From the NCBI GenBank assembly GCA_019057795.1, contig JAHLWS010000067.1, forward strand, positions 1-64,000: a stretch of DNA of 64,000 nucleotides, given 5' to 3'. Numbering within the stretch: the first letter of the stretch is position 1; the number at the start of each line of letters is the position of its first letter. The stretch comes from Promethearchaeota archaeon. Its GTDB lineage: Archaea; Asgardarchaeota; Lokiarchaeia; Sigyniarchaeales; SOKP01. This document shows, piece after piece, positions 5,875 through 30,770 of this stretch. Under the pieces are notes generated by a model that worked only from the letters and a program-made list of their open reading frames with translations, ran no database searches and was not told the origin of the DNA. The position numbers were made by a program, and so were the translations under genes.

Positions 5875-6016
5875 CATTATGAAAACTGTGAATTCAGGAT
5901 AATGATAATACTGATCTGCTCTGAGAATTTTTATATTTTTATCTTATTTTTTAAGATGCTATTGACATATAAAAAAGATTTTAATTACAAGCCTAATACT
6001 TCGTTTGTAGTATATA
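5875..6016. repeat. 142-bp direct repeat, copy 2
   Basis: Near-identical to 4416-4557. Confidence 0.95.
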
Positions 6017-6068
6017 TTTTGTTTTCTTTAGCTTGTACAATAAACTTAATCGCTTTAATTGCACCTTC
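5985..6068 (-). pseudogene. dapB: Orphaned 3' end of dapB (displaced allele)
   Basis: Minus strand reads EGAIKAIKFIVQAKENKIYTTNEVLGL*, colinear with the DapB C-terminus TGAIRAIKYIAKQKESKIFEMKDVLNL* (14/27 identical). Confidence 0.85.
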
Positions 6069-8505
6069 CAAAAAATTTAGAGTTTAATTTAACATTTCTT
6101 AGAGATAATTTTTACAAGAACATTAAATTATAAGAGTGTTCCTATTAAAATAGTTATACTTATTACTTGTTAATTAGTAGTCTCTCAATTTAAATATATC
6201 AAATAAATTAAACTTAAATTACCACCATATTAAAATAATTTTATTAGAGATCTCTTATGATTAAAGGAGATAAATCAATTACATCAGTTGAAAAATATAA
6301 GCTAATTTGGGAATTCATTCATAAACATATCAAAAATAATAGCGAAAAATTGCTCAACCTCAAGGAAGGAAATGATAATAATGATTTTTTTGCATATTTA
6401 ACTGAGGTACTAATGGATAAATTATTGACCGAAACCAGATTGTTAAAAAATTTGCATCGAAATACCCTAAATGCACTACCAAAAGTTATTACTGCTATTT
6501 TTTTATTACATCTTCAAAAAATTAAGGCATTTAAAGGGGATGACCTAGAAAAAAAGTTTGGAATGGCAGGGCAATATAAAAAATTGAGAGCAATAGCAGA
6601 TCATCTTGGCTTGGAATTACCTTTCATTATGGGGGATGTAGTTGAGAGAATTCTTGAAGAAAAAAAGGAAGATATTTTTAAAGGTAAATTCTTTCCCTCT
6701 CAAGAAAATTTATGTAAGCTGGATAAGAGGCTTACTCATTCTAGAAAAATGGTTAAAACTATCTCTAGATGGATTCGGAAGAATTCTGATTATCATAATT
6801 TGACAGAAGTTAAACTAATAGTTTATGAGAAAAAAGATAAAAAATCAATAGAAGAAGAGAAGAGATTTGTATTACTAGATAGAAACAAATTTAAACATAG
6901 TGAAGAAGTTAGGAAAATTTGTGATGAGATTATTCAAAGAAATCCAGAAATAAATTCTTATGCAGATTTAAGAAGGAATATTGGAGTAGATGTTTCACAA
7001 TATTTTAGGACTGATCATCGTCGCTATATTAAGGTTTCGGAATTTTTGAAAATACAAAATTTGTATGGAAGACCTATACAACACAAAAAATATGTTAAAC
7101 GTTTCACTAATGATAAATGGATCTTTCTCTGGCAAGATTCTGAAGGAGAACCCATAGCTAAAGAGCAGGCTATTATTTTAGCTTCCAAGTATCTACTTAA
7201 AGATATTTTAAAAAATGACACCACTAAATATGATTTGGATTATATTAATAACATATTAGGTCGAAATGATTATACCACTGCTTTAGGTGTAAGAGGAATT
7301 AGATATAATGAAGCCTTAGTAAAATTAGGACTAGATTTACATTCAGAACCTGGAAAATGGGAAGATCTTGATTGGAGTTTGGATAAGCACTCGCGAACGT
7401 ATGATGAGGCTTTAGATAATGCAGCAAAGCATCTTAAAGAATTAATGGTAGATTATGATTATGAAGTCACCAAAATTCCTTCTCAACAATATATCGTAAA
7501 TCAGCACGAAGATTTTTATGGAGCTCTTAAAAGGTATAGCATTGATTTTTATGATGCATTAAGAAAAGCTGGCTTTCCAGAAGATAAATTCAGAAAAAAA
7601 TGGTGGCTCTTTGATAATGATGAGCAAGGTAACCTTCTTACATCTCAGGAACAAGGAAAAAAAATCTTCCAGTTTTTCAATGATAAAATTTTGCCAATAT
7701 ATATCGACAAAGGTTTAATTGGGGGGAATCTTGGACCAAGCTATGGTGATGCGATAGACTTTTTGAAGGATACCGAATTTCATGGTTTTGTAAGTGCAAT
7801 AAATGCGAGGGGAGTTGCACATGGAAATCTTCTATTATCGGTTGGACTATCACCACGGATTACACCAAATCAACAAGCAGGTAATGCTTTTCATTGGATT
7901 GCTGAAAACCTTTTTATGAAGCATACAAGAATAGATAATTGCTGTATATCTTATTATGAATCCAAAATTAACGACGAGAATTTTGTTAGATCGGATAATA
8001 CTATTATTGTGAATGAAGATTTTCGCAAGCTTTCAGAATTTACAAGGCGAATTCCAACAGAAATTAAATATATTCACATTGATTATTATTTGTTTCATTC
8101 AAATAAGAGATCACAATATAAATTTGATCGAGGTTATCAAAGCAAAGATTCAATTTTACTATTAGTTCCACTTAATATTAAAAAAAGTAGAAAAACACAA
8201 CTCAAAAATATCAAAATTCTTTCGGTTTACGATTTTTGTGATTTTTTTGGTTTTTCTGATGAAAGAAGAGAGATTACCATTCATTTTGCACGATTAGCAT
8301 TAGGTTCGGTTAGGGGGACAGCTGATAGCTTAGAAAAATTGTCGATATTAAAGCAGAAAGCTGATAAGTATAAAAATGAGCTACAAAATAATCCAAAGAT
8401 TAATTTTACTTTATAAAAAAATTAAAGATTAAGAACATCTTTCATTTCGAAGATTTTACTTTCTTTTTGTTTCGCAATATATTTTATTGCTCGTATTGCT
8501 CCAGT
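6069..8505. mobile_element. Nuclease element inserted in dapB carrying a replacement 3' end (right boundary uncertain, may extend to ~8780)
   Basis: Old dapB 3' end at 5985-6068, nuclease gene, then new dapB 3' end tail-to-tail 5 bp from the nuclease stop codon. Confidence 0.7.
6257..8416 (+). CDS. Putative site-specific endonuclease: helical DNA-binding repeats plus divergent C-terminal PD-(D/E)xK-like domain
   Basis: Three repeats resembling homing-endonuclease-associated repeats (RGIRYNEALVKLGL, RYSIDFYDALRKAGF, RGVAHGNLLLSVGL). C-terminus G..FH..AE...YYE...RSDNTI...IHIDY. Confidence 0.6.
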   Translation: MIKGDKSITSVEKYKLIWEFIHKHIKNNSEKLLNLKEGNDNNDFFAYLTEVLMDKLLTETRLLKNLHRNTLNALPKVITAIFLLHLQKIKAFKGDDLEKKFGMAGQYKKLRAIADHLGLELPFIMGDVVERILEEKKEDIFKGKFFPSQENLCKLDKRLTHSRKMVKTISRWIRKNSDYHNLTEVKLIVYEKKDKKSIEEEKRFVLLDRNKFKHSEEVRKICDEIIQRNPEINSYADLRRNIGVDVSQYFRTDHRRYIKVSEFLKIQNLYGRPIQHKKYVKRFTNDKWIFLWQDSEGEPIAKEQAIILASKYLLKDILKNDTTKYDLDYINNILGRNDYTTALGVRGIRYNEALVKLGLDLHSEPGKWEDLDWSLDKHSRTYDEALDNAAKHLKELMVDYDYEVTKIPSQQYIVNQHEDFYGALKRYSIDFYDALRKAGFPEDKFRKKWWLFDNDEQGNLLTSQEQGKKIFQFFNDKILPIYIDKGLIGGNLGPSYGDAIDFLKDTEFHGFVSAINARGVAHGNLLLSVGLSPRITPNQQAGNAFHWIAENLFMKHTRIDNCCISYYESKINDENFVRSDNTIIVNEDFRKLSEFTRRIPTEIKYIHIDYYLFHSNKRSQYKFDRGYQSKDSILLLVPLNIKKSRKTQLKNIKILSVYDFCDFFGFSDERREITIHFARLALGSVRGTADSLEKLSILKQKADKYKNELQNNPKINFTL

Positions 8506-9243
8506 AGCAAAACAATTTCTATTTATTGCAGTATGCTTTAGTTCGATATATTCTCCAGAACCAGCATATAATATTTTATGTTCTCCAACTATATCACCAG
8601 CACGTATACAATGAATCCCAATCTCATTTTTAGCTCCTTTTTCTCTTAATCCTTTACCCCTAGATCGGCCATATTTAGTTATATCCTCCTTTTTTACTTC
8701 TAGCACTTCACAAATGGTGTCAAGTATTTTAAGAGACGTCCCACTGAAGTTATCTTGTTTTCGATTATGATGGGTTTCAATAATCTCAATGTCCCAATCG
8801 TTTAAATATTCAGTTAAAATTGCTGCTATTTTGAATAAAATGTTTACGCCCGTTGCCATATTAGGCGAAATCACTGCTGGAGCCTTCTTTGTTTTTACAA
8901 GGTTTTCGAATTCATCGAGAAAATCTTGGGTCATTGCTGTTGTTCCAATTACGCATTTAATTCCGTTTTCAACGCAGATTTTGCAATTTTTTTCTGTTGC
9001 TTTTGCCACAGTAAAATCTACAGCGACATCTGGCTTAGTTTCGTCTATAACTTTTTGAAGATAATTAACATCACTGATTTTGATTTTATTCCTATCTTTT
9101 ACGGCTAAGAGCCCTCCTAATTCTTCGCCGATATTATTTACATCGCAAGCGGCAACTACTTCAATTTCTTCTTCCTTTAACGCTAATACACTAATAAGCT
9201 TCCCCATTATCCCCGTAGGGCCTAAGATTAGTAATTTTATCAT
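8422..9243 (-). CDS. dapB: 4-hydroxy-tetrahydrodipicolinate reductase
   Basis: GPTGIMG, VDFT, VIGTT, SPNMATGVN, EIIETHHNRK.D..SGT, IRAGDIVGEH. GGTGG RBS. Confidence 0.96.
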   Translation of the reverse strand: MIKLLILGPTGIMGKLISVLALKEEEIEVVAACDVNNIGEELGGLLAVKDRNKIKISDVNYLQKVIDETKPDVAVDFTVAKATEKNCKICVENGIKCVIGTTAMTQDFLDEFENLVKTKKAPAVISPNMATGVNILFKIAAILTEYLNDWDIEIIETHHNRKQDNFSGTSLKILDTICEVLEVKKEDITKYGRSRGKGLREKGAKNEIGIHCIRAGDIVGEHKILYAGSGEYIELKHTAINRNCFATGAIRAIKYIAKQKESKIFEMKDVLNL

Positions 9244-9268
9244 TATAATCCACCTTAAATCAAGCTTT

Positions 9269-10168
9269 CTAAATTAAATTTAAATTCTTTAATACGATTT
9301 TAACCTTTTCTTGATTGTCTACTAACGGAGGCGTTAGTGGCAACCTCATCCTTTTATTCATTATTCCCATTAATTCCGCAGCGTACTTTACTGGACCGGG
9401 ATTAGTTTCAATAAATAATACTTTAAAAAGATCGTATAGTTCGAACTGTTTTTCTTTAGCTTTTTCCCAATTTCCCTTAAGCATTGTGTTTGTGAATTCC
9501 ACAAGTTTAGCGGGTATAATATTTGCTGCTACACTTACGACGCCTTTACCACCCAGAGCCATTATGTGGAATGTCATTCCATCATCACCACTAAGAACTA
9601 TGAAATCTTCTGGTGTTGTTTTTACAATCTTGGTAATTTGATCTATATTTCCACTAGCACATTTAATCCCAACGATGTTATCATTTTTATAAGCTAACTT
9701 GGATACAGTTTCAGGTTCTAAATTTCGACCTGTGCGACTAGGTACGTTATATAATATTATCGGTAAAGATATTGAATCTGCTATTGCTGAGAAATGATCT
9801 ATTAAAGAATGTTGCACTGGTTTATTATAATATGGAACAACAACTAAACATCCATCAGCCCCTGCTTTTTCAGCGTATTGACTGAGTGATATTGACTCTT
9901 GAGTTGAATTACTTCCTGTCCCTGCTAATACAAAGGGGTCTTTTCCGCTTTTTTTTGCCTCATCAACCGTGATCTCTATTGCGTAATGGTGCTCCTTATG
10001 AGACAACGTTGCTGATTCGCCAGTAGTACCCATGGTTAAAGGCTGACAGCCGTTATCGATCTGAAATCTAATAAATTCACGATATTTTTCTTCGTCTATA
10101 GAAAAATCCTCATTAAAGGGCGTTATCATAGCAGTAATTACATTTTGCAATTTCTCGAGCTTTTTCAT
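9269..10168 (-). CDS. dapA: 4-hydroxy-tetrahydrodipicolinate synthase
   Basis: ITPF, GTTGES, GTGSNST, PYYNKP, LYNVPSRTG, GIK, LSGDD, ETNPGPVK. Confidence 0.97.
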   Translation of the reverse strand: MKKLEKLQNVITAMITPFNEDFSIDEEKYREFIRFQIDNGCQPLTMGTTGESATLSHKEHHYAIEITVDEAKKSGKDPFVLAGTGSNSTQESISLSQYAEKAGADGCLVVVPYYNKPVQHSLIDHFSAIADSISLPIILYNVPSRTGRNLEPETVSKLAYKNDNIVGIKCASGNIDQITKIVKTTPEDFIVLSGDDGMTFHIMALGGKGVVSVAANIIPAKLVEFTNTMLKGNWEKAKEKQFELYDLFKVLFIETNPGPVKYAAELMGIMNKRMRLPLTPPLVDNQEKVKIVLKNLNLI

Positions 10169-10421
10169 GATTAATCATATCAGTTTTTCTTTTTTTGTAG
10201 GATTTAACTGTTAAAACTATTTAAATAAAAAATAATAATTAAAATATAATTTGTTAAAATTCGCTTATAAGGATTATTGCTAAGCACATCATAAATAATC
10301 ATCTATATCACTATTGTGTTGTTACGTCTTTTAATATTAGTCAAGTAAGAAGTTTTAATATTTTAGAAAAAAATTAAATAGGAAGTTAATTATGATTTTG
10401 GTATAAAATTCTAAAGTAAAC

Positions 10422-11432
10422 ATGAAATTGGATTATTTAAATAAATTTAATGGAACTATATTAGGCGTAAGCATTGGAGATACTTTAGGTCACCCCTTTG
10501 AAGGAATGTTACGAGAGAGAATTTATTCTCATTTTAAAGATTTCAAAGAATTTATCAACAGCAACAAAAAACTATTTAATTCGTATACTGACGATACACA
10601 ATTAACACTACACACAGCAGAAGCACTTATTCAAGGATCTGGATTCAATATAAATAATTTTACTAGAGAATATATTAAATGGCTTGAAGATCCTCCAATA
10701 GGACCGGGATTTGGATGCATTTCCTCTATTCAAAAATTAAAATACGGAATTCCATGGGAAAAAGCGGCTTCGAATTCGGGAGGTAATGGTACCGCAATGC
10801 GAGTCTCTCCAATTGGATTGTTTTACTGTAAAGATATAAAAAGTTTAGAAAAATCCGCTTTAAAATCTAGTATTATCACTCATTCTCACCCAGCAGCTTC
10901 AGCAGGTGCTATAGTTATAGCAAGAGCAATAGCTTTTTTAATAGATAAAAAACCAGAGACTGTTTTTTCAATCGACGAGTTCTTTGAAACTATTATATTA
11001 TCAATTTCAAACTCTCATGAAAGAATATGGGGAGAATTTATCGAAATTTTAAACAAAGTAAAGCAAAATTTAAACATCTCAATCGAAGCAGGGTTAATAA
11101 AATTCTCCCAAGTTGGGGTTAAATCACCATATTTTATTGAAGAATACTTGGGTAAGGCTTTTGTTCACCCTTATACTCTCAGTACTGTTGCTTGCGCCAT
11201 ATTCGTTTTTTTAAAAAAATTAAACTCATTTGAAGATTGCATTTTTCAGTTAGCAACAGCAGGAGGAGATAGTGACACTGTTGGAGCTATCGGTGGAAGT
11301 TTAGCAGGTGCTTATTTTGGATTAAAAAATATTCCTAGCGATTTAATAATGATTGTAAAAAATCATAAAAATATCTTAAGAGTTAGTGAACGATTACATC
11401 TTAAATTCAAAGAGAAATACAAAATAATCTAA
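10422..11432 (+). CDS. ADP-ribosylglycohydrolase family protein
   Basis: GDTLG, YTDDTQ, GNGTAMR, ITHSHP, GGDSDTVGAIGG. Confidence 0.93.
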   Translation: MKLDYLNKFNGTILGVSIGDTLGHPFEGMLRERIYSHFKDFKEFINSNKKLFNSYTDDTQLTLHTAEALIQGSGFNINNFTREYIKWLEDPPIGPGFGCISSIQKLKYGIPWEKAASNSGGNGTAMRVSPIGLFYCKDIKSLEKSALKSSIITHSHPAASAGAIVIARAIAFLIDKKPETVFSIDEFFETIILSISNSHERIWGEFIEILNKVKQNLNISIEAGLIKFSQVGVKSPYFIEEYLGKAFVHPYTLSTVACAIFVFLKKLNSFEDCIFQLATAGGDSDTVGAIGGSLAGAYFGLKNIPSDLIMIVKNHKNILRVSERLHLKFKEKYKII

Positions 11433-11998
11433 TCAAAATCGTCTAGGAAATCATTCAATTTTTTCAAGCACGTTTCGCAATAATTTGGCGGTTTTTTATC
11501 CGTATCGTCTAAGGAATTTGAATATCGCATTACACATAGATTTTCACAGTGTTCTAACCCAAAAGTGTGTCCAAGCTCGTGAATTGCTTCCTTCAACACT
11601 CTTAACTCAAATTGAGCTACATTTTCAGATCTCCTATAAAATTTTTCCCTTAAACGAGTAACTGAAATTAAAGCGCTCCCAAAAGATTTGTTTTTAGGCA
11701 TGTCAGCAACGCCAAATACAAAGTTTAAAAATCTCGAAAAAATATCTACATCCATAACACCTAATATACGATAGTAATTTTTATTATTAACATGCTTGAT
11801 TAACCTTTTTTTAACCTTTAAAGCATCGTATTGTCTTTGATAAGGTCCATATTCAGATTCCAATAATGGAAGTTTCTCGGGAAGAATATTTATTTTAATG
11901 TTATTATTTTTAAAGAACCACTTCAAATTCTTTTGAAGAACAATTAAAATCCTAGGATCGATATCTCCAATTCTTTGTAGATGAATTATTTTCTTCAT
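11429..11998 (-). CDS. amzA: Archaemetzincin (peptidase M54)
   Basis: HELGHTFGLEHCENLCVM zinc motif, NFVFG, D.K...C..C. Confidence 0.92.
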   Translation of the reverse strand: MKKIIHLQRIGDIDPRILIVLQKNLKWFFKNNNIKINILPEKLPLLESEYGPYQRQYDALKVKKRLIKHVNNKNYYRILGVMDVDIFSRFLNFVFGVADMPKNKSFGSALISVTRLREKFYRRSENVAQFELRVLKEAIHELGHTFGLEHCENLCVMRYSNSLDDTDKKPPNYCETCLKKLNDFLDDFD

Positions 11999-12221
11999 TT
12001 TTAAACATATTAAAATAGATTAGATAAAATATCTTAGCTAAGAAAATATTATACGTTTTTATTTATTAGATTTAATATAATCTAATGGCATATCGATCGT
12101 TGGTGAATTGCAATAAAAAAATTAAAAATCGAAAGAATATTTTAATCTTTATTATTAACATATAATAATTAAATTTTTCATTATTAAGATATAAAAAATC
12201 GTTTTACCCCTCATATTTAAT

Positions 12222-12295
12222 GGGAGGGTGGTCTAGCTTGGTATGATTCCTGGTTTGGGACCAGGTGGCCGGGGGTTCGAATCCCCCCTCTCCCA
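12222..12295 (+). tRNA. tRNA-Pro (TGG), intronless
   Basis: Acceptor stem GGGAGGG/CTCTCCC+A, anticodon arm CCTGG-TT TGG GA-CCAGG, T-arm GGGGG TTCGAAT CCCCC, poly-T downstream. Confidence 0.96.
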
Positions 12296-12384
12296 TTTTT
12301 AAACTTATTCTTTGATGATTTATGTTAATTCAATTTTAAATTCCAAAAAAAAAAATAATAACTTGAACTTTAAAAGAAAAAGGA

Positions 12385-12687
12385 TTAAATTTTTGTGTAC
12401 TCTTCGATATCTATTGATTCCTCTGAATTAAAGTAAATTTCAGGAATTAAGTCCTGAATTGTTGAGAAAAATGATATCATTGTTGCCGGATTATCAGAAG
12501 TTATTTTGTAATATTTATGAAATCTCCAAATCTTTTTATAAGTGAGTTGGTCTTGAAAGAATTGAAAAATCTGCTCGATATCACCTATAAAATCTTCATG
12601 CCTTTGCACCCAAGCGTAAATTTCGTTTCTATTTCTTTTTTTATCCTGTCTAATTTTTAACTTTATTATCATCTTAATGCTTAACAA
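12385..12687 (-). CDS. Hypothetical protein
   Basis: 100-aa ORF lying just downstream of the displaced polyferredoxin 3' end. Confidence 0.65.
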   Translation of the reverse strand: MLSIKMIIKLKIRQDKKRNRNEIYAWVQRHEDFIGDIEQIFQFFQDQLTYKKIWRFHKYYKITSDNPATMISFFSTIQDLIPEIYFNSEESIDIEEYTKI

Positions 12688-12799
12688 CTTATTTCTGTTT
12701 TAAAACTGCTAAATATAACATATTTTTGATTTTATTTATTAAAACAAATAGAAATTTTTAAGGCGAAAATCCTTTAGAAATTAGAAAAGAATAATAAAA

Positions 12800-13036
12800 T
12801 TATCCTAAAACCTTTTTTAATTCTTTTGTAATCCTATCAACTTTTTTATCCTTCATCCAATAACGAATTTTGCTCGATTTTAGAAATTCTTGGACTATGT
12901 TATTCAATTCATTTAATTTCTTCTTATCTTCCTTGGTGAGCTGAGGTACTTGTTCTTTTATTTCCTTTTTTATTTTTTCGATATGTTCTTCAACAGTTAG
13001 TATTTGAACTTGCTCCTTACCTTCGACAATTGCCTT
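12800..13036 (-). pseudogene. Orphaned 3' end (78 codons + stop) of the polyferredoxin gene
   Basis: KAIVEGKEQVQILTVEEH...FLKSSKIRYWMKDKKVDRITKELKKVLG*, gap-free and 40/78 identical to the C-terminus of 15677-16753. No start codon; preceded by TGA. Confidence 0.92.
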
Positions 13037-13169
13037 TCAATTATTTAATTATTATTAATTTTATTATATTATTTTTAAATTAAAAGAAACATAATCCTTA
13101 TCACACTTAATATTTAAATAGTAATAATATTTTTTCGACATTAAGAAATTAATGAAGCCCACAATTTAG

Positions 13170-15578
13170 GTGTTAAATAAACTGAATGAAACAGAAGTTT
13201 ACAATCTATTTAAGACATACTTAATAAATAATGCGTTAGAATTTCTCGGAGATCGCTCAATTATAATAAATAATAATATTCCTGATTTTATTTATAAAAA
13301 ATCTAAATATTTTATTGCTATAGAAATCAAAGGTTCAGGACCAAAAACGGGCATTGAGAGGGGTTATACTCAATGTTGGAGTTATTTAAAAGAAGTTAAT
13401 AAATCTTTCATAGTTATACCTGACGATGATACAATCAAATTAATTAAAAAAAATCTTTTAAAGGATTTAGGAATTGGCTTAATAACTATTTCTCGTTCGG
13501 GTAATTTAAAGATATTATTTGATTTTTCTAATGAAAAGGATTTAAATAAAAATTGTTTGAGGGTAAGTAGAATATTCAATAATAGATCTAATGATGAAAG
13601 AAAAAAAAATTCTTTAACTACAACAGAAGTAAAAGAAAATATTATGAAAATCCTAAAACAGAATGGATATACTACAATAGATAAAATAGTAAATAATCTC
13701 AAATTGGACAAACCAACTATTAAAAGATTTTTAAATGAAAAGCTTAGACCTGAAGGAAAAGTTAATATATTAGGTTGGGAATATTTAGAAAAAGGGCAAA
13801 CTTTGAGGAATAAAAAAGGAAAAAAAATTTGGTGTTCTTCAGATTTTGATCTCTCTTGGAAAGATTTACCAGTAAAAGTAATACCATATCCCCATGGTTT
13901 TGATGGATTAATATTTTCTTTGGTTAACCAAGAAGCTTTGACAAATAGAGAAATTTTTGAAAAATTAGCAAATCAGGGGTACAATATTAAGCTTAATGAT
14001 ATAGAAAAACTAACATCAAAATCTTATCGTAATGGCTTTTTAATTACAATTCCATATATTACGAAAAATAAAAGAAGAGGATTTAGATACAGATATCATG
14101 ATCGAACAGATATGAATAAAAATAGATTTTGGAGAAACCCAGAATTTTCATTATTATTAGAAGAGAAAGGAGCGATGACTATTAGAGAGATAGCTACAAA
14201 TACGGGTTATACTGCTTCATATGTAAATACTCAAATTAAGAAATTAATAAAAAAGAAAGAAGTCATAGTGCTTGGTAAAAGACCAAGTGGAACAAGAATA
14301 TTTGGGAATTATAAATTCATAGAAAAAGCACCAATTGAATTTTTATCAAAGTTACAAGAAAAAATATTAATGAAGTTGAAAATTTTAAATAAATTTGAAG
14401 TATATGATAATATTGTAAAATTATTGCCTGAAAATAGAAAGAGAACAATTATTACAAATATTAGAAACTTAGTGAACAGTAGATTTGTAGAAAGAAAAAA
14501 ATATCAAACAACATTTAATGTGAAAATATCTTCTAAAGGCTTGGGTTATTTACAAACACTTGATGATTTAAATCTTAGCATTGATAGATGGAGAGAAAAT
14601 GAGGAAATAGTATTACTCTCACATTCTGAAAAGAGAATTATCAAATTGATTGATGAAAAGAAATATTGTACTCTAGAAATGATTATTAATTTGCTTGATG
14701 TATCCGAAACAGCCGCAAGACATTATATTCATAATTTAATAGATATATATAATTTAATTATAAGGGGAGGGAGAATATTTAATTCAGAAGCAAATGAAAA
14801 TTGTAGAAATTTTTATGGCAATGTTTTCTATTGTAGACCCGAAATTCTAGAAAAATTACCATTTAAGTATTTCCCTATATCAGGTTTTAAAGGATTAGTT
14901 GTTAAGATTGTTCTGGAAGAAGGTACGGTAATGAATTTTTATGATATCAAAAATATAGCAGAAAAAATATATAATATTGAATTTCCCTCAGATTGTATAA
15001 GAAATGCTTGTATGAATGCAGTAGAGAATGGAGAACTCAAAATAGTAGGAAATAAAAGAACTACCACTGGAAAAGCAGCCAATGCATATCTGCCAATCAG
15101 TTCAAATATTGAAGTTTTAACTCCAAAAGAGAATATTATGTTCTTATTTAAGAAAAATAGATTACTTACAGCTAAAAAAATTGCTGAAATATTAGATTAT
15201 GAAAGTATTAGTCAAATAAATAAATACTTAAATGAGTTAAAAAATGAAAACAAAATTTCGGAAAGTTCCACACGTGGTTTAACAAAATTTTATTCCTTAT
15301 CATCAATAGCACCAGAAATTTCTCCCAATCGTTTAACTGATTATCAAGAATGGTGTCTATACAATATTAAGAATTTTAAGAATGAATTTGAAAATAGAAA
15401 AACAAAAATGTTCAGAAAATATTTAGATGAAAAAAATAAAATAGAATGGAGTACTTTTAGAAAAGGTTTTAATGATCTTTTAAAAGATAATTATCTTGAT
15501 ATAATTGAAAAAAAATACATTTTGACTATTAAAGGTAAAAAATATATAAGAGGGATTTTTGGAACTGAATTTGATTAG
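13170..15578 (+). CDS. N-terminal PD-(D/E)xK nuclease fused to an array of winged-helix repeats
   Basis: IPDFIY...IAIEIKG...GYTQCWSY nuclease motifs. Repeated HTH units such as MTIREIATNTGYTASYVNTQIKKL and LTAKKIAEILDYESISQINKYLNEL. Confidence 0.75.
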   Translation: MLNKLNETEVYNLFKTYLINNALEFLGDRSIIINNNIPDFIYKKSKYFIAIEIKGSGPKTGIERGYTQCWSYLKEVNKSFIVIPDDDTIKLIKKNLLKDLGIGLITISRSGNLKILFDFSNEKDLNKNCLRVSRIFNNRSNDERKKNSLTTTEVKENIMKILKQNGYTTIDKIVNNLKLDKPTIKRFLNEKLRPEGKVNILGWEYLEKGQTLRNKKGKKIWCSSDFDLSWKDLPVKVIPYPHGFDGLIFSLVNQEALTNREIFEKLANQGYNIKLNDIEKLTSKSYRNGFLITIPYITKNKRRGFRYRYHDRTDMNKNRFWRNPEFSLLLEEKGAMTIREIATNTGYTASYVNTQIKKLIKKKEVIVLGKRPSGTRIFGNYKFIEKAPIEFLSKLQEKILMKLKILNKFEVYDNIVKLLPENRKRTIITNIRNLVNSRFVERKKYQTTFNVKISSKGLGYLQTLDDLNLSIDRWRENEEIVLLSHSEKRIIKLIDEKKYCTLEMIINLLDVSETAARHYIHNLIDIYNLIIRGGRIFNSEANENCRNFYGNVFYCRPEILEKLPFKYFPISGFKGLVVKIVLEEGTVMNFYDIKNIAEKIYNIEFPSDCIRNACMNAVENGELKIVGNKRTTTGKAANAYLPISSNIEVLTPKENIMFLFKKNRLLTAKKIAEILDYESISQINKYLNELKNENKISESSTRGLTKFYSLSSIAPEISPNRLTDYQEWCLYNIKNFKNEFENRKTKMFRKYLDEKNKIEWSTFRKGFNDLLKDNYLDIIEKKYILTIKGKKYIRGIFGTEFD

Positions 15579-22603: not shown

Positions 22604-23076
22604 GATGAATGAAAATTGTTTATTTAATATCTTTTTTTTTATTTAATACTGAAAATAGGTCTACAGTATTCTTTCATTTCTTTTAGGAGGTCTGATGAGG
22701 GAAAAAATTTGTCCGTATCATAAAGTATAATTAATGAATTGAGAACTACAATGAATTTGTGATTTAAGATTTTAAACTCATCTTGAATCCTTACAAGATT
22801 TATGTTATATCATTGTAAGATAATTAAGTTTGAAATCATAATTCAATGATAATTTTGTATTTATAATAAAAAAAAATGAATCTAGTAATCAATAAATAAG
22901 ATACATTATTAATTGAATATTTAGATTATTTAAGAGATATTAGCTATAAACTTCAACACCTAGATGCTAGAGTCAAGCAATCCGAAGCAGAAATGCTATT
23001 TCATAATACAATAAATATTATTAATATCCTTTATTTATAGACTACATTAATGATCATCTTCTTATCAAGATCTGCT

Positions 23077-26000
23077 TCATTTAATTTCTTTTAATGAATC
23101 TGGGATTGAACAATTTGGAGCTACCTTAATAATGTAAAATTTTGGATTTAATAAAGTTAAATAATCATCTAATGAAATCTCAATCTCCTTATCTGTATAG
23201 ATTCTTAAATCAACGTTATTTTCATTAAATTTTTTAAGATCTTCTGGTAAAATTCTTAATTCTGGAAGCTCAACCCATAAATGTGTTAAATTGGATAACT
23301 CATGGAGGAAATCTGGAAATTTGCAATTAGGTTTTACCTTAATCTTGAAAGTACAAATATCTTTTGGATTCCAAAAATCATTTGAAAATTCAATAAATTT
23401 ATCTGTTATGATCAATTGCTGTATTTGTTTGAAATGCATTAAATCTCTTGGTATTTGTTCAATAAACTCCATATTTACCTCAAGATAAATTAAATTTTTA
23501 CATTCCTTAACAAAATAGGGAAAAAAATTATTGTTATCAATTCTTACATATGTAATTTTATCGAAATTACTCTCTAATAAATCAAAAAATCTACTTATTC
23601 TTGAACCTGAAACCCTTAAATGAGTAATGTTTTGAGTATTTGAAAATTGTATAGGTTTTCTATGCAAGATCGAAATTTCCATACGATTATTTTTATTATC
23701 TTCCCAAAAATTTTCTTGGAAATCTTGAGAACCCCCGAATGAAATGTGTAGACACTTTACTTTTGGAAGATTTTTAATTAATTCTGGAATTTTATCTAAT
23801 GGAGGATTTATCCAACGTATGTATGATAAATTTTTAAGATTCTCCCATGATTTTGGTAAGTCTTTTGCTGCTATATCATTTATTTGAAGATGTGTTAAAT
23901 TTTCTAATTTATTAAGCGATTCACTTAATATGCATCTTTCATTTACTCTAAGTTCTAATCTAAATTTAGTTTCTTTGATTCCAAATTCTCCAGTTAATTT
24001 ACTTAATTCTTTAGATGTTATTAAAGTTTGATTAAATTGAGTCAAATTTCCAAGAAAATTTGGTAATTCTGTCAACTGAGAAAGAGAAATTCGAAGATGT
24101 GTTAACTTTTGCATGTAAATCTTATTTTTAGGGAATTTACAATCCTTTCTTACTCTTATCATAAAGTTCCCCTTATTATCATCATCAAGAAAATTTTCTA
24201 TAGGTGAAGGTAATTCTTTTTCTGTTATATATATCTTTTTAATATGAGATGAGGTAAATACCCATTCTTTTAAATCATTAATAGCAAGGTGATCTATTCT
24301 GAGGTTAATTAAATTTTTAAAATCATTTACTATATTCGGTAAAATAGTTTGGCCTCTTGAAAATCCGAATAAATATATTCCTTTCCCAGAAATCTTCCAA
24401 AAGTTTAATTTTTTAAAAAATTCTTTTGTAAGATTTTCTTGATTGGTGATTAGAAGCTTTTTTAATCTGCCATTAATTGATACATTTTTTGGGAATCTAG
24501 TAAGAACCTTAATCCATACTTTTTTAATATGAGAAGGAATAGTTAACTCATTTAATATGAATTGTGTATGGAGGTTAACTAGTACTCGAGAACTATCTAA
24601 TTGGTATTGATCCATATAATCATTGATATCTTCTAGATTTTGAGATATATTAATTAAAATGTTCTGAAACATTTCCCACTTAAATACAATATCCGGTAAG
24701 ATATTTGAGAATTGAGAATTGATGATTATCTCACTTAGTTTAGAGCAAGATTTTAAACTTTCAGGAAAATTAAATTTAAAGAAATTTTCTATATAAATTG
24801 ATTCAAGATTCTTTAATAAAGAAATTGATTCATGCAGATTCAGTACAAATTGATGACCTTTTACTAGAATATCAATTATTTTTAAATTTTTAATTGTAGA
24901 GTTTTTCCCAAATTTAATTAATTCTCCCTTAAGTTCTAAAGATTCTAATTCTTCTAAGGACCAAAATAGATCTTTAAATTCAAAATAGTTTTGCATTTCA
25001 AATATATTCAATAAACCCTTTGGTATTTTTAATGTTAAAGAACTAATATACTCATTAGAATTTGTAATCCCATAAGCAAATTCACCAGAATAATCTTTTA
25101 AATGATTTAAATAATCAATAACAACAGCATCCTTAATTTTTAAATTAATTTTTTCTAGTTTTGGTGTTAATTGTCCTTTAATTTCTATTCTATCATCTAC
25201 CATTAGTAAATTATCGTCAATATAATCAATAGATGGTAAAGTTTGCTTTTTTGGATGAAATGAAATATAAGTATTTTTCAATAAATTGACAAATTTAAGA
25301 TCCTTGAATTCATGCCACCATGAGTTAATTGATTTTATATTGTTGTTTTGAATATTCATTCTATATAATCTGTCTAATTTTGTTAATGTATCTGGAAGTT
25401 CTTTTAATTCATTATATCCTAAATTTAGAATTTCTAAATTTTTTAATCTACCAATATCTTTAGGTAGTTTTGGTAATTCATTATCTTGAAGATCTAATTT
25501 CTTTAAACCTATTAATTTATAAACCCCTTTGGGAATACTTTTTGTTTTCATATGATCTAAATATAATTCCGATACACGATCATTAATATCAATCACATAA
25601 CCTTGATGTCTCTTCAATTCTTCGAAATCTGAAAGATTTCTTAATCTATGATTTCCGATTTCAAATTCAATTTCTTCTAATGAATTTGCATCGGATTTAC
25701 AAATTTCAAATTCCTGAAATCTTTGTTTCAATTTAGAACTATAGTGTTCAATAAAACCTTGATATTCTTCTTGAAAGTAATACTTAAATTGAGTCTTTGT
25801 TTTATCTATTTTTATAATACCACTAGAATAAATTACATCCCAACTTCCTTTTCTGTCATGTTTAAATTTACTAAGCTCATTATCAAGAATGGGAGTATAA
25901 GGATCAGCAATAATACTAACTAAATCTTTGAAATCATTTTCTACAGTACCCACAATTCCCATTCTATTTAAAATAGTATTTTCATTTTGGCGACTTTCGA

Positions 26001-27957
26001 AAAGATTATACCACTCATCTTCAGTTGGATTGAATTTTTTTTCGACTATATATACATTACTTTCAAATATTATTCTAATTATAAAAGGTTTCATCAATAA
26101 TCTCTTTACAAGTTTATCCTTAACCTTTTCATAATTTATCCCATAATTTTCATTGATCTTTTTTAATCGTGCTAAATCTTTAATATCTGAAAGAATATAA
26201 CTTGTACCAGTAGGAATATCATTATCTTCAAAGTTATTGAATTTATCATTTTGAAAAATATACCGTTTATATTGTCTATAATTTCTGATTATTTCTTTAG
26301 TATTTATCCAATCTACTAATCTTGATGTTAATAATATAATTAGGTGCTCATAGTTCTTTTCTAAATCAATCAAATCACAGAGATTATTTAGGAAATCTCC
26401 TCTCTCATCTTCAGTTAATTCCTCAAAACCGTCAAAGATTAGAAAGAGATCTCTTTTTTTTCTCTCATTAAATGCAAGTAATTTAGGTATTTTGCAAGAA
26501 TCTTTATTAAATCCTCCTAATATATTTTCAAACCGATCTTCATATGAGCGAAGATGAAAATAAAAAGTTGGGATTTTCTTCTGCTTGATATATTCAAATG
26601 CGAGATATGATGCATTCCATGTTTTTCCCAATCCCATATGCCCTAATAATAAGAAAATTCTATTTTTTCCTTGGGGATTCTTAAGGGTTCTAAAAAAATT
26701 TTCAAAAATATTTTCAAGATCTGGGTCTTTTTCAAATAGATCTAGATTGAATCTAGTTTCGAACCTTGAAGCAAGATCTACTAATTCTAACTGTTGTAAA
26801 CAATAATTAAGTAAAACATCATCTTCAAATTCAATTATTTCATTATGATTTTTCGCTCTTAATCTCCATAAAGGTATCTTAAAATTTTCAATAGTAAAAT
26901 CAAGCTGACTCCTCCAATCTATGCTTTTTGTGTTTAAATTCCCTAATTTCGAAATCAGGCGTGAACTTATAACTTCAAAAAATGAAGGATTTTTTTCATA
27001 ATAGCCCTTAAGTAAACTTAATGTTTGAAATAATTTATCAAAAATTTTTTCTTTTTGAATAGTATTATCTTCATAAAAATTAACTATCTCTGCTATAATT
27101 TGCGATACAATTTCTCTTAGTTCAGTAAGGCGGACTTTTTTAATTATTTCTTTTCTATTTGAGTCTTTTATCTTAATTTGAAGGAACTTGTCTAAATATT
27201 TATATAAGTTATTAATAAAAAGTATTTTATTATCTAAATTCAATGTGACTATGAAAATTATTGCCCATTCTACAGTATCTCGTAAATTTTTATCAAATTC
27301 TTCAAGAAATACTTGTTCTAAATTTATATTAAGAAAATCTTCTAATCCATTCTCAATTGTATTTGAATCCTTACAAAATAACTGATAATCATCTTCACCT
27401 ATATTACTCTGTAATTTAATCTTTCTTATAGCACTTTTATATGCATTTTCAATTTTATTATTATTGCAAAAAACTTCATAAAAACCTTCTGAAAATGTGA
27501 TTGCGTGATTATCATAAATTTTCCGTTTGGTTCCCACCGAGCAAGGCAAAAATTCAGAGACTTTCTTGGCAATCTTTAAAGATTCACAAGAATTAAAAAT
27601 TACAATTTTAATATTATTTTTAAAATTTTTGAGGACATCAACAGTGTCTTCCAAAAGAAACTTAGAGTCATAAATTTCCTTAAAATGAACATCATCTTCA
27701 AAATAAAATCCACTGGATAATTCACCATGTCCAGCAAAATGGATCATTTGAGGTTGATATCGTGAGATATATTCAAAAAATTCATTTCTTTCGGTGGCAA
27801 AAGCAGGTTCAAGATGAATAAATTCACGAAATGGTGACTTTTCTATTATTTTCTTAATTATCTTGAATTCTTTATCAATTCGAGTCTTAATCGTACTTTC
27901 TTTGAAATTTGCCGAAAGAAATAAAATGGTAAATTTCTTCTTTCTTAATGCCAACAT
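23077..27957 (-). CDS. CHAT (caspase-like) protease - STAND/NACHT-like NTPase - leucine-rich repeat protein
   Basis: ILFLSAN, IHFAGHG and IFNSCES (His/Cys dyad). Walker A GHMGLGKT, Walker B LIFDGFEE, sensor LLTSR. LRRs such as LKKLDLQDNELPKLPKDIGRLKNLEILNLGYNELKELP. Confidence 0.88.
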   Translation of the reverse strand: MLALRKKKFTILFLSANFKESTIKTRIDKEFKIIKKIIEKSPFREFIHLEPAFATERNEFFEYISRYQPQMIHFAGHGELSSGFYFEDDVHFKEIYDSKFLLEDTVDVLKNFKNNIKIVIFNSCESLKIAKKVSEFLPCSVGTKRKIYDNHAITFSEGFYEVFCNNNKIENAYKSAIRKIKLQSNIGEDDYQLFCKDSNTIENGLEDFLNINLEQVFLEEFDKNLRDTVEWAIIFIVTLNLDNKILFINNLYKYLDKFLQIKIKDSNRKEIIKKVRLTELREIVSQIIAEIVNFYEDNTIQKEKIFDKLFQTLSLLKGYYEKNPSFFEVISSRLISKLGNLNTKSIDWRSQLDFTIENFKIPLWRLRAKNHNEIIEFEDDVLLNYCLQQLELVDLASRFETRFNLDLFEKDPDLENIFENFFRTLKNPQGKNRIFLLLGHMGLGKTWNASYLAFEYIKQKKIPTFYFHLRSYEDRFENILGGFNKDSCKIPKLLAFNERKKRDLFLIFDGFEELTEDERGDFLNNLCDLIDLEKNYEHLIILLTSRLVDWINTKEIIRNYRQYKRYIFQNDKFNNFEDNDIPTGTSYILSDIKDLARLKKINENYGINYEKVKDKLVKRLLMKPFIIRIIFESNVYIVEKKFNPTEDEWYNLFESRQNENTILNRMGIVGTVENDFKDLVSIIADPYTPILDNELSKFKHDRKGSWDVIYSSGIIKIDKTKTQFKYYFQEEYQGFIEHYSSKLKQRFQEFEICKSDANSLEEIEFEIGNHRLRNLSDFEELKRHQGYVIDINDRVSELYLDHMKTKSIPKGVYKLIGLKKLDLQDNELPKLPKDIGRLKNLEILNLGYNELKELPDTLTKLDRLYRMNIQNNNIKSINSWWHEFKDLKFVNLLKNTYISFHPKKQTLPSIDYIDDNLLMVDDRIEIKGQLTPKLEKINLKIKDAVVIDYLNHLKDYSGEFAYGITNSNEYISSLTLKIPKGLLNIFEMQNYFEFKDLFWSLEELESLELKGELIKFGKNSTIKNLKIIDILVKGHQFVLNLHESISLLKNLESIYIENFFKFNFPESLKSCSKLSEIIINSQFSNILPDIVFKWEMFQNILINISQNLEDINDYMDQYQLDSSRVLVNLHTQFILNELTIPSHIKKVWIKVLTRFPKNVSINGRLKKLLITNQENLTKEFFKKLNFWKISGKGIYLFGFSRGQTILPNIVNDFKNLINLRIDHLAINDLKEWVFTSSHIKKIYITEKELPSPIENFLDDDNKGNFMIRVRKDCKFPKNKIYMQKLTHLRISLSQLTELPNFLGNLTQFNQTLITSKELSKLTGEFGIKETKFRLELRVNERCILSESLNKLENLTHLQINDIAAKDLPKSWENLKNLSYIRWINPPLDKIPELIKNLPKVKCLHISFGGSQDFQENFWEDNKNNRMEISILHRKPIQFSNTQNITHLRVSGSRISRFFDLLESNFDKITYVRIDNNNFFPYFVKECKNLIYLEVNMEFIEQIPRDLMHFKQIQQLIITDKFIEFSNDFWNPKDICTFKIKVKPNCKFPDFLHELSNLTHLWVELPELRILPEDLKKFNENNVDLRIYTDKEIEISLDDYLTLLNPKFYIIKVAPNCSIPDSLKEIK

Positions 27958-28326
27958 TTTAATGATTTTTACATAAATAATTGAATGTAATCGACATTAA
28001 TAAAATTCTAATAAATGTTTCTTATGTCTTTTGATTTTGAATTTCATTTATTAAAAATAATAATGACAATTTGCTTTATTATATTAAATGATAATCTAAC
28101 CTTATATATATTTAATTTTTAGAGGGAATTCATAGTTAATTTTTCTCTTTAATCGTTTTTAATAACGAACACATTATTCCTTTTTCAATTTTTCCTCAAT
28201 AAATTTTAATCTAGGACAATGATGAACATCAGAAGCATAATCGCATTTTGGAAAAGAAATTTTTTCCGAGTCCTCAATTATTATCATGGGATTAAAACAA
28301 ATATATGTATGGATAGAAGTAGGTCT

Positions 28327-29655
28327 TTATACATCTAATTCTACTTTCTTTGAAAGGAATAACTCCCCAGTTCTTAATTTTACAAATGCTTGTATTTTAT
28401 ATGGAGGTTTTACTTCTTCTGCATCTAAAAAATGAGTAAGTTGCATTTTATTAATCCTATGAAAAAATGATTTGGTGGGTTTTAAAAAATCATTTAGATT
28501 TTCATCAAGTTTAATATCAGAATTTATGTATATTCCAAATCTCCCCACTTCAAAAGGATAATTTCCAGTATTTTTAAATGCCAATTCTAAAAAATCCAAC
28601 AGTGATAAATGCATAGGTTCTAAAAAAGGAGAGGTTTTCAACATTTGTCTATATCCTTTTAGAGTTATCTCACAAAAAGGAATCTCTCTTGGAATTTTTA
28701 GCTCATAACCATAAATAGAGAGGATATAATCTTTTAATTCCGTTAAAATTTCTACTATATGGCTGAAATTAGAATATAACAGTTTTTTACCTTCTTTTTG
28801 AATTTGGATTCTCGTACCTTCCATATATGAACTTGTCATGATAATATATTTTTCTCCAATGATGTCAATTTTATTAGAAAATCCTTTTCTTTTTTGAAAA
28901 ATTTCTATACCAAAATAGATTTTCTCTTCAGAAAATCGCAAATCTTGTAATATTTGTTTTATCTCATCCACAGAGAGTCGATTTTTTGAAAGCTTGGATA
29001 AAAAGATTGCGAAACGATTGAAATAAGCTTGTAATTTAACATGTTGAGCTTCTGAAATAGAATCTCTAGGGTACGAAGAGCTTGTATCCTCTTTCCATTT
29101 GAGCTTGACTTGATTCAAGATTTCTTCGGCATAAGAGTAATTCTCAATCCATCGTATCTTTCTCTTGCCTTCTTTCTTAAGATGTTGTAGTCGTTCTATG
29201 AACTCATATAGTCCCATTTGAGCTTTATATCCTAAATTAGAAAAATTTTCCTCTAAATAACCCTCATCATGTTTTCTGTGTTTATGATACATTCCTGCTT
29301 GTGTAAAGGTATTCCGGTAAATGAATATCAAGATAGGTATATTTTCACGATGAGCTGTCATGAATTCTTCTTCGGTTATTGAATATTTATAGGAACCATC
29401 AGGATATGTCTCGGAAGTATTATAAGGAATGCCATATCTCTCTTTCAAAACTAATATAAATCTATCGCATTTCTTTACATTTTCCAAGCATGTATCAAAT
29501 GTATCCTCGTTTTCAACATCAAATCGTTTATGAAACCAAATAGGTTCATACTCTAATTCTGGTAATCGGCTTTCTAGGTGTTCTAATACATCCTTTACAT
29601 CATCAGTACCTGCAAGAAAAACACATTCTTTTCTTTTTCTAGAATCATTCATCAT
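28327..29655 (-). CDS. DUF4062 (TIR-like) domain protein with unknown C-terminal half
   Basis: VFLAGT, CLENVKKCDRFILVLKERYG, SITEEEFMTA...IPILIF. Confidence 0.82.
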   Translation of the reverse strand: MMNDSRKRKECVFLAGTDDVKDVLEHLESRLPELEYEPIWFHKRFDVENEDTFDTCLENVKKCDRFILVLKERYGIPYNTSETYPDGSYKYSITEEEFMTAHRENIPILIFIYRNTFTQAGMYHKHRKHDEGYLEENFSNLGYKAQMGLYEFIERLQHLKKEGKRKIRWIENYSYAEEILNQVKLKWKEDTSSSYPRDSISEAQHVKLQAYFNRFAIFLSKLSKNRLSVDEIKQILQDLRFSEEKIYFGIEIFQKRKGFSNKIDIIGEKYIIMTSSYMEGTRIQIQKEGKKLLYSNFSHIVEILTELKDYILSIYGYELKIPREIPFCEITLKGYRQMLKTSPFLEPMHLSLLDFLELAFKNTGNYPFEVGRFGIYINSDIKLDENLNDFLKPTKSFFHRINKMQLTHFLDAEEVKPPYKIQAFVKLRTGELFLSKKVELDV

Positions 29656-29966
29656 TAGAACATAGAATTCTTGAATTTAACTTATCTTTAAATTGCATAT
29701 AAAATAAATTAGGAATATATAAACACTAATATATATCTATTGAAGTATTTTTTTTTTTAATCTTTATAAATTAGTAGGTATTTCAATGCTTCACACTACT
29801 ATGAAGTTATATTTTTAATTATTTTTAAGGGTATTAATATTGGTTTCAACTTAATATTCTGGAAATGAAAATTAGTTTAATCAACAATTCTCTCTAAAAA
29901 TATCGATTATCCCATTTATATTCTTAGTTATTTCCCTGATATTTTTAGAAACTGCATAGATTAATG

Positions 29967-30300
29967 TTATTCCAGTGATGACCATTCCAATTCCATATAA
30001 AAATTTTGAAGAATCGATTTGAGGTAATCGATTCCAAGTCGATTTTCAGGAAAACGAGGAATGATATCCTTTATATTATTAAACAGATAAGAATATCTTG
30101 GTTGTTTTTGTGCTTTTCCTGCTTTTTCTCTTTGGTTTTTTTTATAAATAGTTAAATTTTCTTTAAATTTCTTCGCATGACCATCTGTAGCAAGTACAAT
30201 AATCCAGTTGTCTCCTTCTTTTTCTAAGATTTCGATGCCACTATTTTTTAAAGAATCCTCATTTACTTCAAATAGATCATTACCTTTTAACTCTTGTTCA
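29967..30300 (-). pseudogene. Foreign gene fragment fused in frame to the polyferredoxin 5' remnant; possibly N-terminal region of an IetS-like S8 peptidase
   Basis: LKNSGIEIL...IIVLATD...FKENLTIY...PRYSYLFNNIKDI...PENRLG resembles, from memory, defence-associated S8 protease N-termini. No catalytic domain follows. Confidence 0.35.
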
Positions 30301-30770
30301 ATAATATGATTCCTATCTCTAACGGTCAAACATAATTGACAAATTTCATGATCTTTATCCTCGGTACACTTATTAAAATCAATTGTATAGAATTTGTCTA
30401 TGGCAGGGAATTCTTCTAAGGAAATCTGTCCTTCAGGTTCGATATTCTCGTGAAATGCGTTGGTAGGGCAAACCACGACACATAGCATGCAATAACAGCA
30501 TTTATCGTGATCAATAAAGAGTTTAGGGTTAGAATCGTCTAAGATATTTTGGGCAATCTCCGGAATTGGTCCTAGCTCTATAGCATCAACGGGGCAGACG
30601 AGTTTACATAAACTACATCCAATACATTTTTTAATGTCATAAGTTAAAACTTTCTTAACATCCTTATATTTCCAATTTAGAACTAATTGATCTATAGCAA
30701 TATCTAAGGTTTTCTCGATTTCCTCTTCTTTATCCTCGTCTAGTTTTTCTTTTGCTGAAGATTCAGTAAT
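30300..30770 (-). pseudogene. Orphaned 5' half of the polyferredoxin gene (ATT start)
   Basis: Open frame ITESSAKEKLDEDKEEEIEKTL..DQLVLNWKYKDVKKVLTYDIKKCIGCSLCKLVCPVDAIELGPIP..CCYCMLC..VRDRNHI, colinear with the first ~157 aa of 15677-16753; homology then stops abruptly. Confidence 0.92.

Follow-up and report, generated by a model that had tools for sequence, protein, structure and literature searches.

Three large open reading frames (ORFs) with nuclease features have been found beside two conserved single-copy genes of an Asgard archaeon. At each of them a native end of the conserved gene has been orphaned as a stump and the working copy carries a foreign end. The DNA analysed (the window) comprises 64,000 nt, positions 1 to 64,000 of contig JAHLWS010000067.1 of a Promethearchaeota archaeon (assembly GCA_019057795.1). 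The genome of the window is called G000 here, and the genomes and loci compared with it carry G and L codes. A syntenic block found genus-wide contains genes for a helix-turn-helix (HTH) regulator, a 166-aa protein, a polyferredoxin (pfd), a 100-aa protein, an M54 peptidase and an ADP-ribosylglycohydrolase, followed by dapA, dapB and a diaminopimelate decarboxylase-type gene. In the window this block is broken by the three ORFs, named n719, n802 and n796, plus about 11 kb of cargo. n719 is paired with the 3' end of dapB, n802 with the 3' end of pfd, and n796, together with defence-type cargo, with the 5' side of pfd.

The favoured reading, to which roughly even chances are given, is that these are homing-like selfish elements in an archaeal chromosome, built like the mobile endonuclease ORFs (mORFs) of fungi that bring a replacement gene terminus. 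Under this reading, the nuclease would cut a naive allele inside the gene, and the break would be repaired from an element-bearing copy. One crossover would fall in the gene body and the other in the stump, which would serve as the second homology arm; in the founding event, the stump end would have been joined illegitimately. The predicted outcome is that the working gene acquires a foreign end and is followed by the nuclease gene and by the host's own orphaned gene end; the nuclease gene could decay later. That the nucleases drive end replacement is a proposal, and we infer that they would cut the naive allele, that the swapped end would resist cutting and that the element may gain an advantage in transmission.

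Native stumps and foreign working ends

The duplicated gene ends were located by tblastn against the window. The working dapB gene (8422-9243, minus strand; 273 aa) has its residues 245-273 duplicated at 6074..5988, with 15/29 positions identical (52%). The working pfd gene (15677-16753, minus strand; 358 aa) is represented twice more, by residues 280-357 at 13036..12803 (40/78 identical, 51%) and by residues 22-159 at 30710..30297 (71% identical). An initial annotation of the window had reported these duplications, of the dapB 3' end and of both ends of pfd, and each was recovered. Both working genes are intact in frame.

The origin of the stumps was established by comparison with the two closest relatives, G005 (about 91% nucleotide identity) and G148 (about 96%). 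In blastn searches against G005, native tracts were found at 5875-6066, 12803-13057 and 30304-30844, and the window is collinear with G005 over 5875-6066, 8666-13057 and 30304-30844. The first tract (5875-6066, minus strand) holds the native dapB 3' stump, with a coding part of 26 codons at 5988-6066, and the native downstream spacer; it is 93% identical to G005 in nucleotides and collinear with G148 up to 6065. The second (12803-13057, minus strand) is a pfd 3' stump of 85 codons. The third (30297-30844, minus strand) holds codons 1 to about 158 of pfd, up to about 30770, and the native upstream region, and its stump has 94.6% nucleotide identity to G005. At the amino acid level, identity to G005 is 93% for the dapB 3' stump versus 59% for the working end, 96% versus 56% at the pfd 3' end, and 95% versus 67% at the pfd 5' end.

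The working dapB gene falls into two parts. Nucleotides 1-450 are 89-99% identical to G148 and G005, and nucleotides 451-822 only 50-68%, whereas the last 190 nt or so are 89-96% identical to alleles linked to n719 elsewhere. Judged by this sharp drop in identity at about nucleotide 450, dapB is a 5'/3' mosaic, with a native 5' part at 8776-9243 and a foreign 3' part of codons ~150-273 at 8422-8775 (both minus strand). The suggestion that the two ends of dapB have different histories was thus borne out. In pfd the foreign allele extends over the whole length of the gene (15677-16753), with 75.5% nucleotide identity to G005 whereas its flanks have 90-95%. The same working pfd is 98-100% identical in amino acids to the pfd end beside an n802 homolog in L041 and L042. 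The breakpoints between native and foreign tracts are sharp.

Alleles without the insertion were found among the relatives. G148 is an empty allele for n719: window positions 4200-6065 and 8777-9664 match it at 96%, and in place of 275 nt of native dapB (L044 890-1165) the window has, at 6066-8776, n719 and the foreign dapB tail. The blastn comparison with G005 shows losses of 163 nt from native dapB and 346 nt from native pfd. It had been predicted that relatives with empty sites would have gene ends matching the stumps and not the working ends, and the G005 and G148 data agree. Integration by a single crossover (Campbell type) was considered for the dapB event of the window and rejected, as native dapB from about nucleotide 450 to about 745 is missing; for founding events such integration is possible.

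On the side of the working gene, n719 lies 5 nt from the dapB stop codon and n802 98 nt from that of pfd, both convergent with the host gene; n796 lies directly upstream of pfd on the same strand and ends 71 nt before its start.

Putative nuclease proteins and their fidelity to gene ends

n719 (6257-8416, plus strand; 719 aa) is helical and contains HTH-like modules in its N-terminal part, and towards the C terminus about residues 535-665 form a putative PD-(D/E)xK-fold domain. The spacer upstream of it (6067-6256, plus strand) is element-specific, and homology to other n719 loci starts only at 6277-6289. No Pfam family matches n719. Its C-terminal 220 residues, folded with 32 diverse relatives, gave a model with a predicted local distance difference test (pLDDT) score of 90, and restriction-type nucleases dominated the fold-search lists at Z 5-7. 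The best structural matches were R.BspD6I, MspJI, the R2 endonuclease domain, Can2, Bax1 and AF1548. The conserved residues are H546, E550, E568, D580, D609, Y627 and Q628, and HTH-like matches were obtained at Z ~5. The full-length model returned helical-repeat noise in Foldseek and VIA searches and was set aside; only the separately folded C-terminal domain was informative.

n802 (13170-15578, plus strand; 802 aa) begins with a minimal PD-(D/E)xK motif, comprising PD39, E52-x-K54 and Q68xxxY72 as read by eye from the sequence. This is followed by a winged-helix array matching the Pfam families HTH_24, HTH_DeoR, MarR and related ones. The match to HSDR_N_2 is weak, and close homologs form only 4 database clusters. 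A spacer at 13058-13169 (plus strand) precedes it.

n796 (16825-19215, minus strand; 796 aa) ends in a putative RecB/Cas4-like PD-(D/E)xK domain. E668, D687, D700-Y-K702, Q714 and Y718 are invariant in 9 homologs, and the matches to PDDEXK_1 (E 0.0034) and PADLOC Cas4 (E 0.005) are both below threshold. The domain is related to a stand-alone PD-(D/E)xK-like protein of about 245 aa found in 38 of 41 genomes of the genus (for example L069 3680-4414 and L070 3516-4241), which may be its housekeeping source. A related C-terminal domain also occurs in a 764-aa ORF at L064 7934-10228 (G011:C147), joined to a LAGLIDADG_3 domain (E 2.5e-8).

Sequence searches of the PDB with the n796 and n802 nuclease domains gave nothing useful, and Pfam detected no LAGLIDADG or GIY-YIG domain in any of the three proteins. 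Public records assign homologs of the nucleases to Lokiarchaeota or Promethearchaeota. All three ORFs carry PD-(D/E)xK-type nuclease features on uneven evidence, namely sequence motifs for n802 and n796 and a predicted fold for n719. The initial annotation had proposed for each a nuclease domain joined to DNA-binding repeats. Nuclease features were seen in all three, and for n719 the fold check came out in favour of this; the DNA-binding extension stood well for n802 and reasonably for n719, and is conjectural for n796. The same annotation had described one architecture occurring three times. This is true of the layout but not of the proteins, since neither tblastn nor profile-profile comparison detected homology among n719, n802 and n796, which are three separate families.

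Each family was found to keep to its own gene end in other assemblies, the n719 family at the dapB 3' end in 6 of 6 loci, n796 at pfd in 5 of 5 and n802 at pfd in 4 of 4. Homologs of n719 form 30 clusters that are 54-85% identical. They are convergent with dapB in L032, L035, L036, L037 and L038, in L036 with two other genes between. Decay has been repeated at this site: in L035 an older n719 survives as 98 nt, together with two older dapB stumps, the dapB stump of L036 is degenerate, and G020 has kept the foreign dapB with n719 reduced to its last 44 codons. Such decayed copies count in favour of homing, as a cycle of invasion and decay would be expected of elements of this kind. Synonymous differences affect 12-15% of codons in dapB codons 206-273 and 18-21% in n719, versus 32-37% in dapB codons 1-150. 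Because the dapB tail and n719 share this low divergence, the sequences indicate that they are co-inherited and travel together through different host backgrounds. The conserved island in the dapB tail was also considered as a functional DNA element; co-inheritance with n719 and purifying selection on dapB explain it more simply.

Homologs of n796 lie upstream of pfd in all five loci examined, including G099/L034, L039 and L040, the last with two extra genes between. A pfd 5' stump was found in all three loci where that side could be checked, reaching to about codon 158 in the window, 189 in L039 and 196 in G099. The same STAND gene accompanies n796 in G099 and L040; the cargo of L039 differs. 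In L033, where there are two copies, and in L041 and L042, homologs of n802 lie beside 3' pieces of pfd. The junction falls at an identical nucleotide (pfd codon ~206) in L033 and L041, which also have an upstream spacer of about 215 nt in common but differ in stump allele. An alignment with this ancestral junction shows that the n802 spacer of the window later lost about 300 bp. L033 (389-5541) has a tandem of two n802-type units, each a pfd stump, spacer and nuclease gene, which repeat at 4220 nt and match each other at 96%. The tandem may have arisen through a circular intermediate, by repeated invasion or by unequal crossing-over. A co-inherited tract of n802 and pfd may exist, as judged from two short contigs. 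The n719 and n796 junctions differ between loci.

The distribution of the elements is patchy. Among 42 species genomes of the genus, n719 was found in 1 and n796 in 2; n802 was found in 1 of 151 genomes of the order, with none in the other 150. In relatives these sites are occupied by ordinary genes, among them kinases and an oxidoreductase, and no stumps were detectable beside these ordinary-gene insertions at dapB and pfd. Upstream of pfd, G005 has an insertion of 3.5 kb with two histidine-kinase genes, which seems to have a repeat of about 49 nt on either side (L026 10536-10584 / 14063-14111), as judged from overlapping blastn matches to the window.

A fourth case was found when the whole G000 genome was scanned for partial terminal copies of genes. 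At G000:C78:158416-161971 (L093 4417-7972), a 797-aa ORF with two HNH_3 matches and HTH domains (G000:C78:159171-161564) is convergent with a conserved GTPase-like gene of 210 aa, whose native 3' stump lies 2.6 kb away. Against G148, G106 and G100, which have empty sites for this element, the working 3' half of the 210-aa gene is 60-64% identical and the stump 85-87%. In G014 and G012 this gene has decayed HNH homologs next to it, and the co-inherited flanking tract is clear in this case.

The remaining features of the window concern its cargo and surroundings. The cargo block behind n796 (19216-30296, minus strand) comprises small ORFs, a C39-like peptidase gene (22067-22603, plus strand), a gene for a 1626-aa CHAT-STAND-LRR protein (23077-27957, minus strand) and one for a 442-aa DUF4062 protein (28327-29655, minus strand), the latter three assigned by Pfam and PADLOC. 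The view that no methyltransferase, integrase or transposase accompanies the nucleases held in Pfam scans of the ORFs over 4626-32230, in which tyrosine or serine recombinases, DDE transposases and Cas1 were likewise absent. In PADLOC a 104-aa ORF weakly matches a type IIG enzyme (E 8e-4). A repeat search of the window junctions returned the duplicated gene ends, but neither att-like repeats nor terminal inverted ones. C-rich cassette-junction (integron-like) repeats were searched for at these junctions and none was found. A tRNA-type attachment site was rejected, because the single tRNA-Pro (TGG) gene, at 12221-12296, lies at no junction; its neighbours are the M54 peptidase gene and, downstream of the pfd stump, the 100-aa gene.

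An earlier insertion is present behind dapB. Its cargo is fer372 (4626-5744, minus strand), a gene for a 372-aa Fe-S protein identified by Pfam Fer4 families and synteny. A direct repeat of 142 nt with 95% identity flanks it (4416-4557 / 5875-6016), and a second repeat of 27 nt lies around it (4554-4580 / 5849-5875). The outer copy at 4416-4557 (minus strand), matched to G005 by blastn, is the oldest copy of the dapB downstream spacer with the last 28 nt of dapB. The fer372 insertion is common to G148, G020 and G002 and absent at this site in G005. Many fer372 paralogs across the genus (for example G000:C10:10091-11200) contain a single in-frame TAA, in some cases TGA, in otherwise full-length matches, and may hold tRNA-type mini-introns.

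Homing and its alternatives

Several findings weigh against homing as the cause of the stumps. The scan that gave the fourth case also gave at least 25 further gene-end stumps in G000, each within a few kb of the intact gene (for example C60:25347-28064, C62:14111-16933, C80:56059-58848, C82:80147-87921 and C63:31388-34414). Of 20 intervening ORFs that were tested, a single one encodes a nuclease, namely the HNH protein. The others include an NTP transferase, an alpha/beta hydrolase, an MNT-HEPN toxin-antitoxin pair, an MFS transporter, a GH4 glycosidase, an M28 peptidase, a Ras-like GTPase, GNAT proteins and an octopine dehydrogenase-like enzyme. Two of these insertions were compared with relatives that are empty at the site: a GNAT-like ORF came with a gene-end duplication of 145 nt and the MNT-HEPN pair with one of 165 nt. 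The region of a further insertion, on C30, has no counterpart in relatives and so allowed no comparison. Closer to the window's elements, fer372 is bracketed by its 142-nt repeat with no nuclease, and in L039 a pfd 3' stump lies behind an S8 peptidase gene and a 137-aa ORF, again with no nuclease. The pfd gene beside n796 is 64-83% identical to L034, and the 3' two-thirds of n796 are 89-98% identical. As pfd is the less conserved of the two, no clear gradient of co-conversion was seen at this site. Other members of the n719 and n796 domain families, which are distant paralogs, have no stumps beside them in this genome or its relatives. Site fidelity would also be expected if cassettes moved by homologous recombination through flanking genes. 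As for the enzymes, the lysine of n719 is not at the canonical +2 position of (D/E)xK, and the nuclease domains of n802 and n796 rest on motifs and sub-threshold profile matches.

Stump formation is a general feature of insertions in this genome. It needs no adjacent nuclease, because nuclease-free insertions leave the same stumps, and because so many stump-flanked insertions are free of nucleases, the layout alone does not show that an adjacent nuclease made the cut. The proposed genome-wide search for nuclease genes flanked by duplicated gene ends gave the HNH case, and also many insertions that have no nuclease. Counted by us from the stump-scan table and the window's elements, 13 of 16 3' insertions and about 7 of 8 5' insertions have ORFs that point at the working copy of the gene. 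The 5' polarity could simply mean that the working gene has to be expressed from the promoter retained with the stump, an account that covers the 5' cases only. A further arrangement was seen at L065 7062-7849 (G005:C197), where directly behind a 186-aa gene stands a copy of its own last 85 codons (55% identical) and next comes a convergent 753-aa ORF, so that the stump lies between the gene and the large ORF.

The alternative that survives best is passive turnover of cassettes, which is less probable than homing but remains a serious contender. Here the conserved gene would act as a recombination anchor, and the nucleases would be cargo, for instance for defence or restriction-like functions, that cut nothing in dapB or pfd. 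Insertion could proceed by one homologous and one illegitimate end, or by single-crossover integration of a circle carrying a gene fragment, and the insertion allele could then spread by ordinary double crossover with the stump as one arm. The nuclease-free majority of stump-flanked insertions, the bracket around fer372 and the L039 stump fit this well. So do the defence-type cargo of the n796 block (STAND-LRR and DUF4062 proteins) and the variable cargo at the same sites in the window, G099, L039 and L040, where relatives hold ordinary genes. The 4.2-kb tandem of L033 and the one junction common to different host alleles would fit integration of a circle by homologous recombination. In the effector-immunity arrays of the Vibrio type VI secretion system (T6SS), sequential displacement reportedly leaves gene remnants in place with no homing nucleases. 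Other findings speak against passive turnover. At least 4 of about 30 stump-flanked insertions have a large nuclease-plus-HTH gene against the working gene, which may be too many for random cargo. Three unrelated nuclease families occur within 25 kb, and each keeps to one gene end over 54-85% protein divergence, yet is patchy in the genus. Decay has recurred at the same site, and the relatives' ordinary-gene insertions at dapB and pfd left no stumps.

It is improbable that the nuclease acts as recombinase of its own cassette, with a circular or excised form carrying a gene fragment being inserted in the manner of an integrase and not by repair-based homing. The enzyme would then cut element and target alike, or else resolve an intermediate. 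The identical n802 junctions of L033 and L041, the 4220-nt tandem unit of L033, the consistent ORF polarity and the lack of integrase and transposase families in the Pfam scans of the region would all suit such a role. Set against this, terminal repeats and conserved element ends are absent, the junctions of n719 and n796 vary between loci, and no circular form was seen. The loss of native sequence between crossover and stump (163-275 nt of dapB, depending on the relative, and 346 nt of pfd) also fits a double crossover better. An assembly artefact, in which the contig would join reads of two strains and create false duplicated ends, is very improbable even for a metagenome-assembled genome with 7.5% estimated contamination, because independent assemblies (NCBI, ENA, JGI and Logan) reproduce the stump-nuclease-gene layouts in independent samples (L041, L042, L033, L035, L036, L039 and G099) and the stumps are truncated at defined junctions beside unique sequence.

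Significance and comparison with known systems

If the homing-like reading is right and the nucleases cut naive alleles, these elements would be a chromosomal, archaeal counterpart of mitochondrial mORFs. They would supply at least three new designs of nuclease for long sites; the n802 winged-helix array on a minimal PD-(D/E)xK core looks like a natural modular DNA reader. They would also represent a mechanism that installs defence islands beside housekeeping genes in the closest prokaryotic relatives of eukaryotes, and a natural precedent for gene drives that cut an important gene and carry its rescue. A broader generalization is offered tentatively and is rather unlikely to hold in full. It states that Loki-type Asgard archaea harbour natural 'home-and-rescue' elements whose nucleases (PD-(D/E)xK or HNH with HTH arrays) cut genes, rescue them with a resistant end or a whole copy, drag defence islands and further cassettes along and explain much of the gene-end scarring. 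Even if the nucleases are passengers, at least 25 orphaned gene ends of consistent polarity point to an insertion process in Asgard archaea for which no description was found in the literature searched.

Several known systems share part of this design. The 'intronless homing' of SegF, SegG and MobE in phage T4 involves a free-standing nuclease gene beside its target, polymorphic presence at a fixed site and co-conversion (PMC5867893; PMC2790892). Unlike the elements described here, phage free-standing homing normally leaves no duplicated gene end, uses GIY-YIG or HNH enzymes (HNH occurs here only in the fourth case) and takes place during phage co-infection and not in a cellular chromosome. 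I-Ssp6803I is a small, intron-encoded and tetrameric enzyme. It employs the PD-(D/E)xK catalytic fold for homing, as is proposed here, and PD-(D/E)xK enzymes of its type form one of the six families of homing endonucleases (PMC6083498). No sequence relationship to it was detected, and the archaeal proteins differ in carrying long extensions of DNA-binding type. Sequential displacement by homology-facilitated illegitimate recombination (HFIR; PMC3240628) resembles the present case in that modules enter by an anchor gene and remnants are left in a row, as with the stacked dapB stumps of L035 and the window. In HFIR and the T6SS arrays of Vibrio cholerae, however, no nuclease gene is needed or linked, whereas here one adjoins the working gene in four cases. 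Engineered HomeR and cleave-and-rescue drives likewise direct a nuclease against an important gene and link it to a recoded, uncuttable copy or end (PMC7968924). They differ in using Cas9 in diploid insects, and the parallel drawn here would follow from layout.

The closest counterpart is the fungal mORF, known from atp6 of Allomyces macrogynus and from atp6, atp9, cox2 and nad3 of Glomus; in Allomyces the endonuclease was shown biochemically to mobilise the element (PMC3630166). In both settings the working gene has a foreign C-terminal part, an endonuclease ORF comes next, and the native C-terminal part lies orphaned beyond it. Native stumps are 91-98% identical to the closest relative in fungi and 93-96% here, and the inserted end is divergent, at 64-81% in fungi and about 50-68% of nucleotides here. 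The layout, with its native stumps and foreign ends, the fidelity to site, the empty and decayed alleles and the features of the nucleases appear to match point for point, and they recur with four unrelated nuclease families. The idea that a new class of element had been found needs to be qualified to this extent, as the design matches that of fungal mORFs (PMC3630166) and the setting and enzymes are new. The fungal enzymes are of the LAGLIDADG or GIY-YIG type and fused in phase with the host gene, whereas those of the window are PD-(D/E)xK proteins of 719-802 aa with HTH-type modules, predicted to cleave, and in the 3' cases are convergent with the host gene. A version at the 5' end, with 11 kb of cargo and a whole replacement gene, also distinguishes the archaeal elements. 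No description of archaeal elements of this type was found in the literature searchable for this analysis. What is new compared with known mORFs is thus the archaeal chromosome as host, the large PD-(D/E)xK or HNH proteins with HTH arrays, the convergent orientation, and the 5' form that combines a replacement gene with defence-type cargo.

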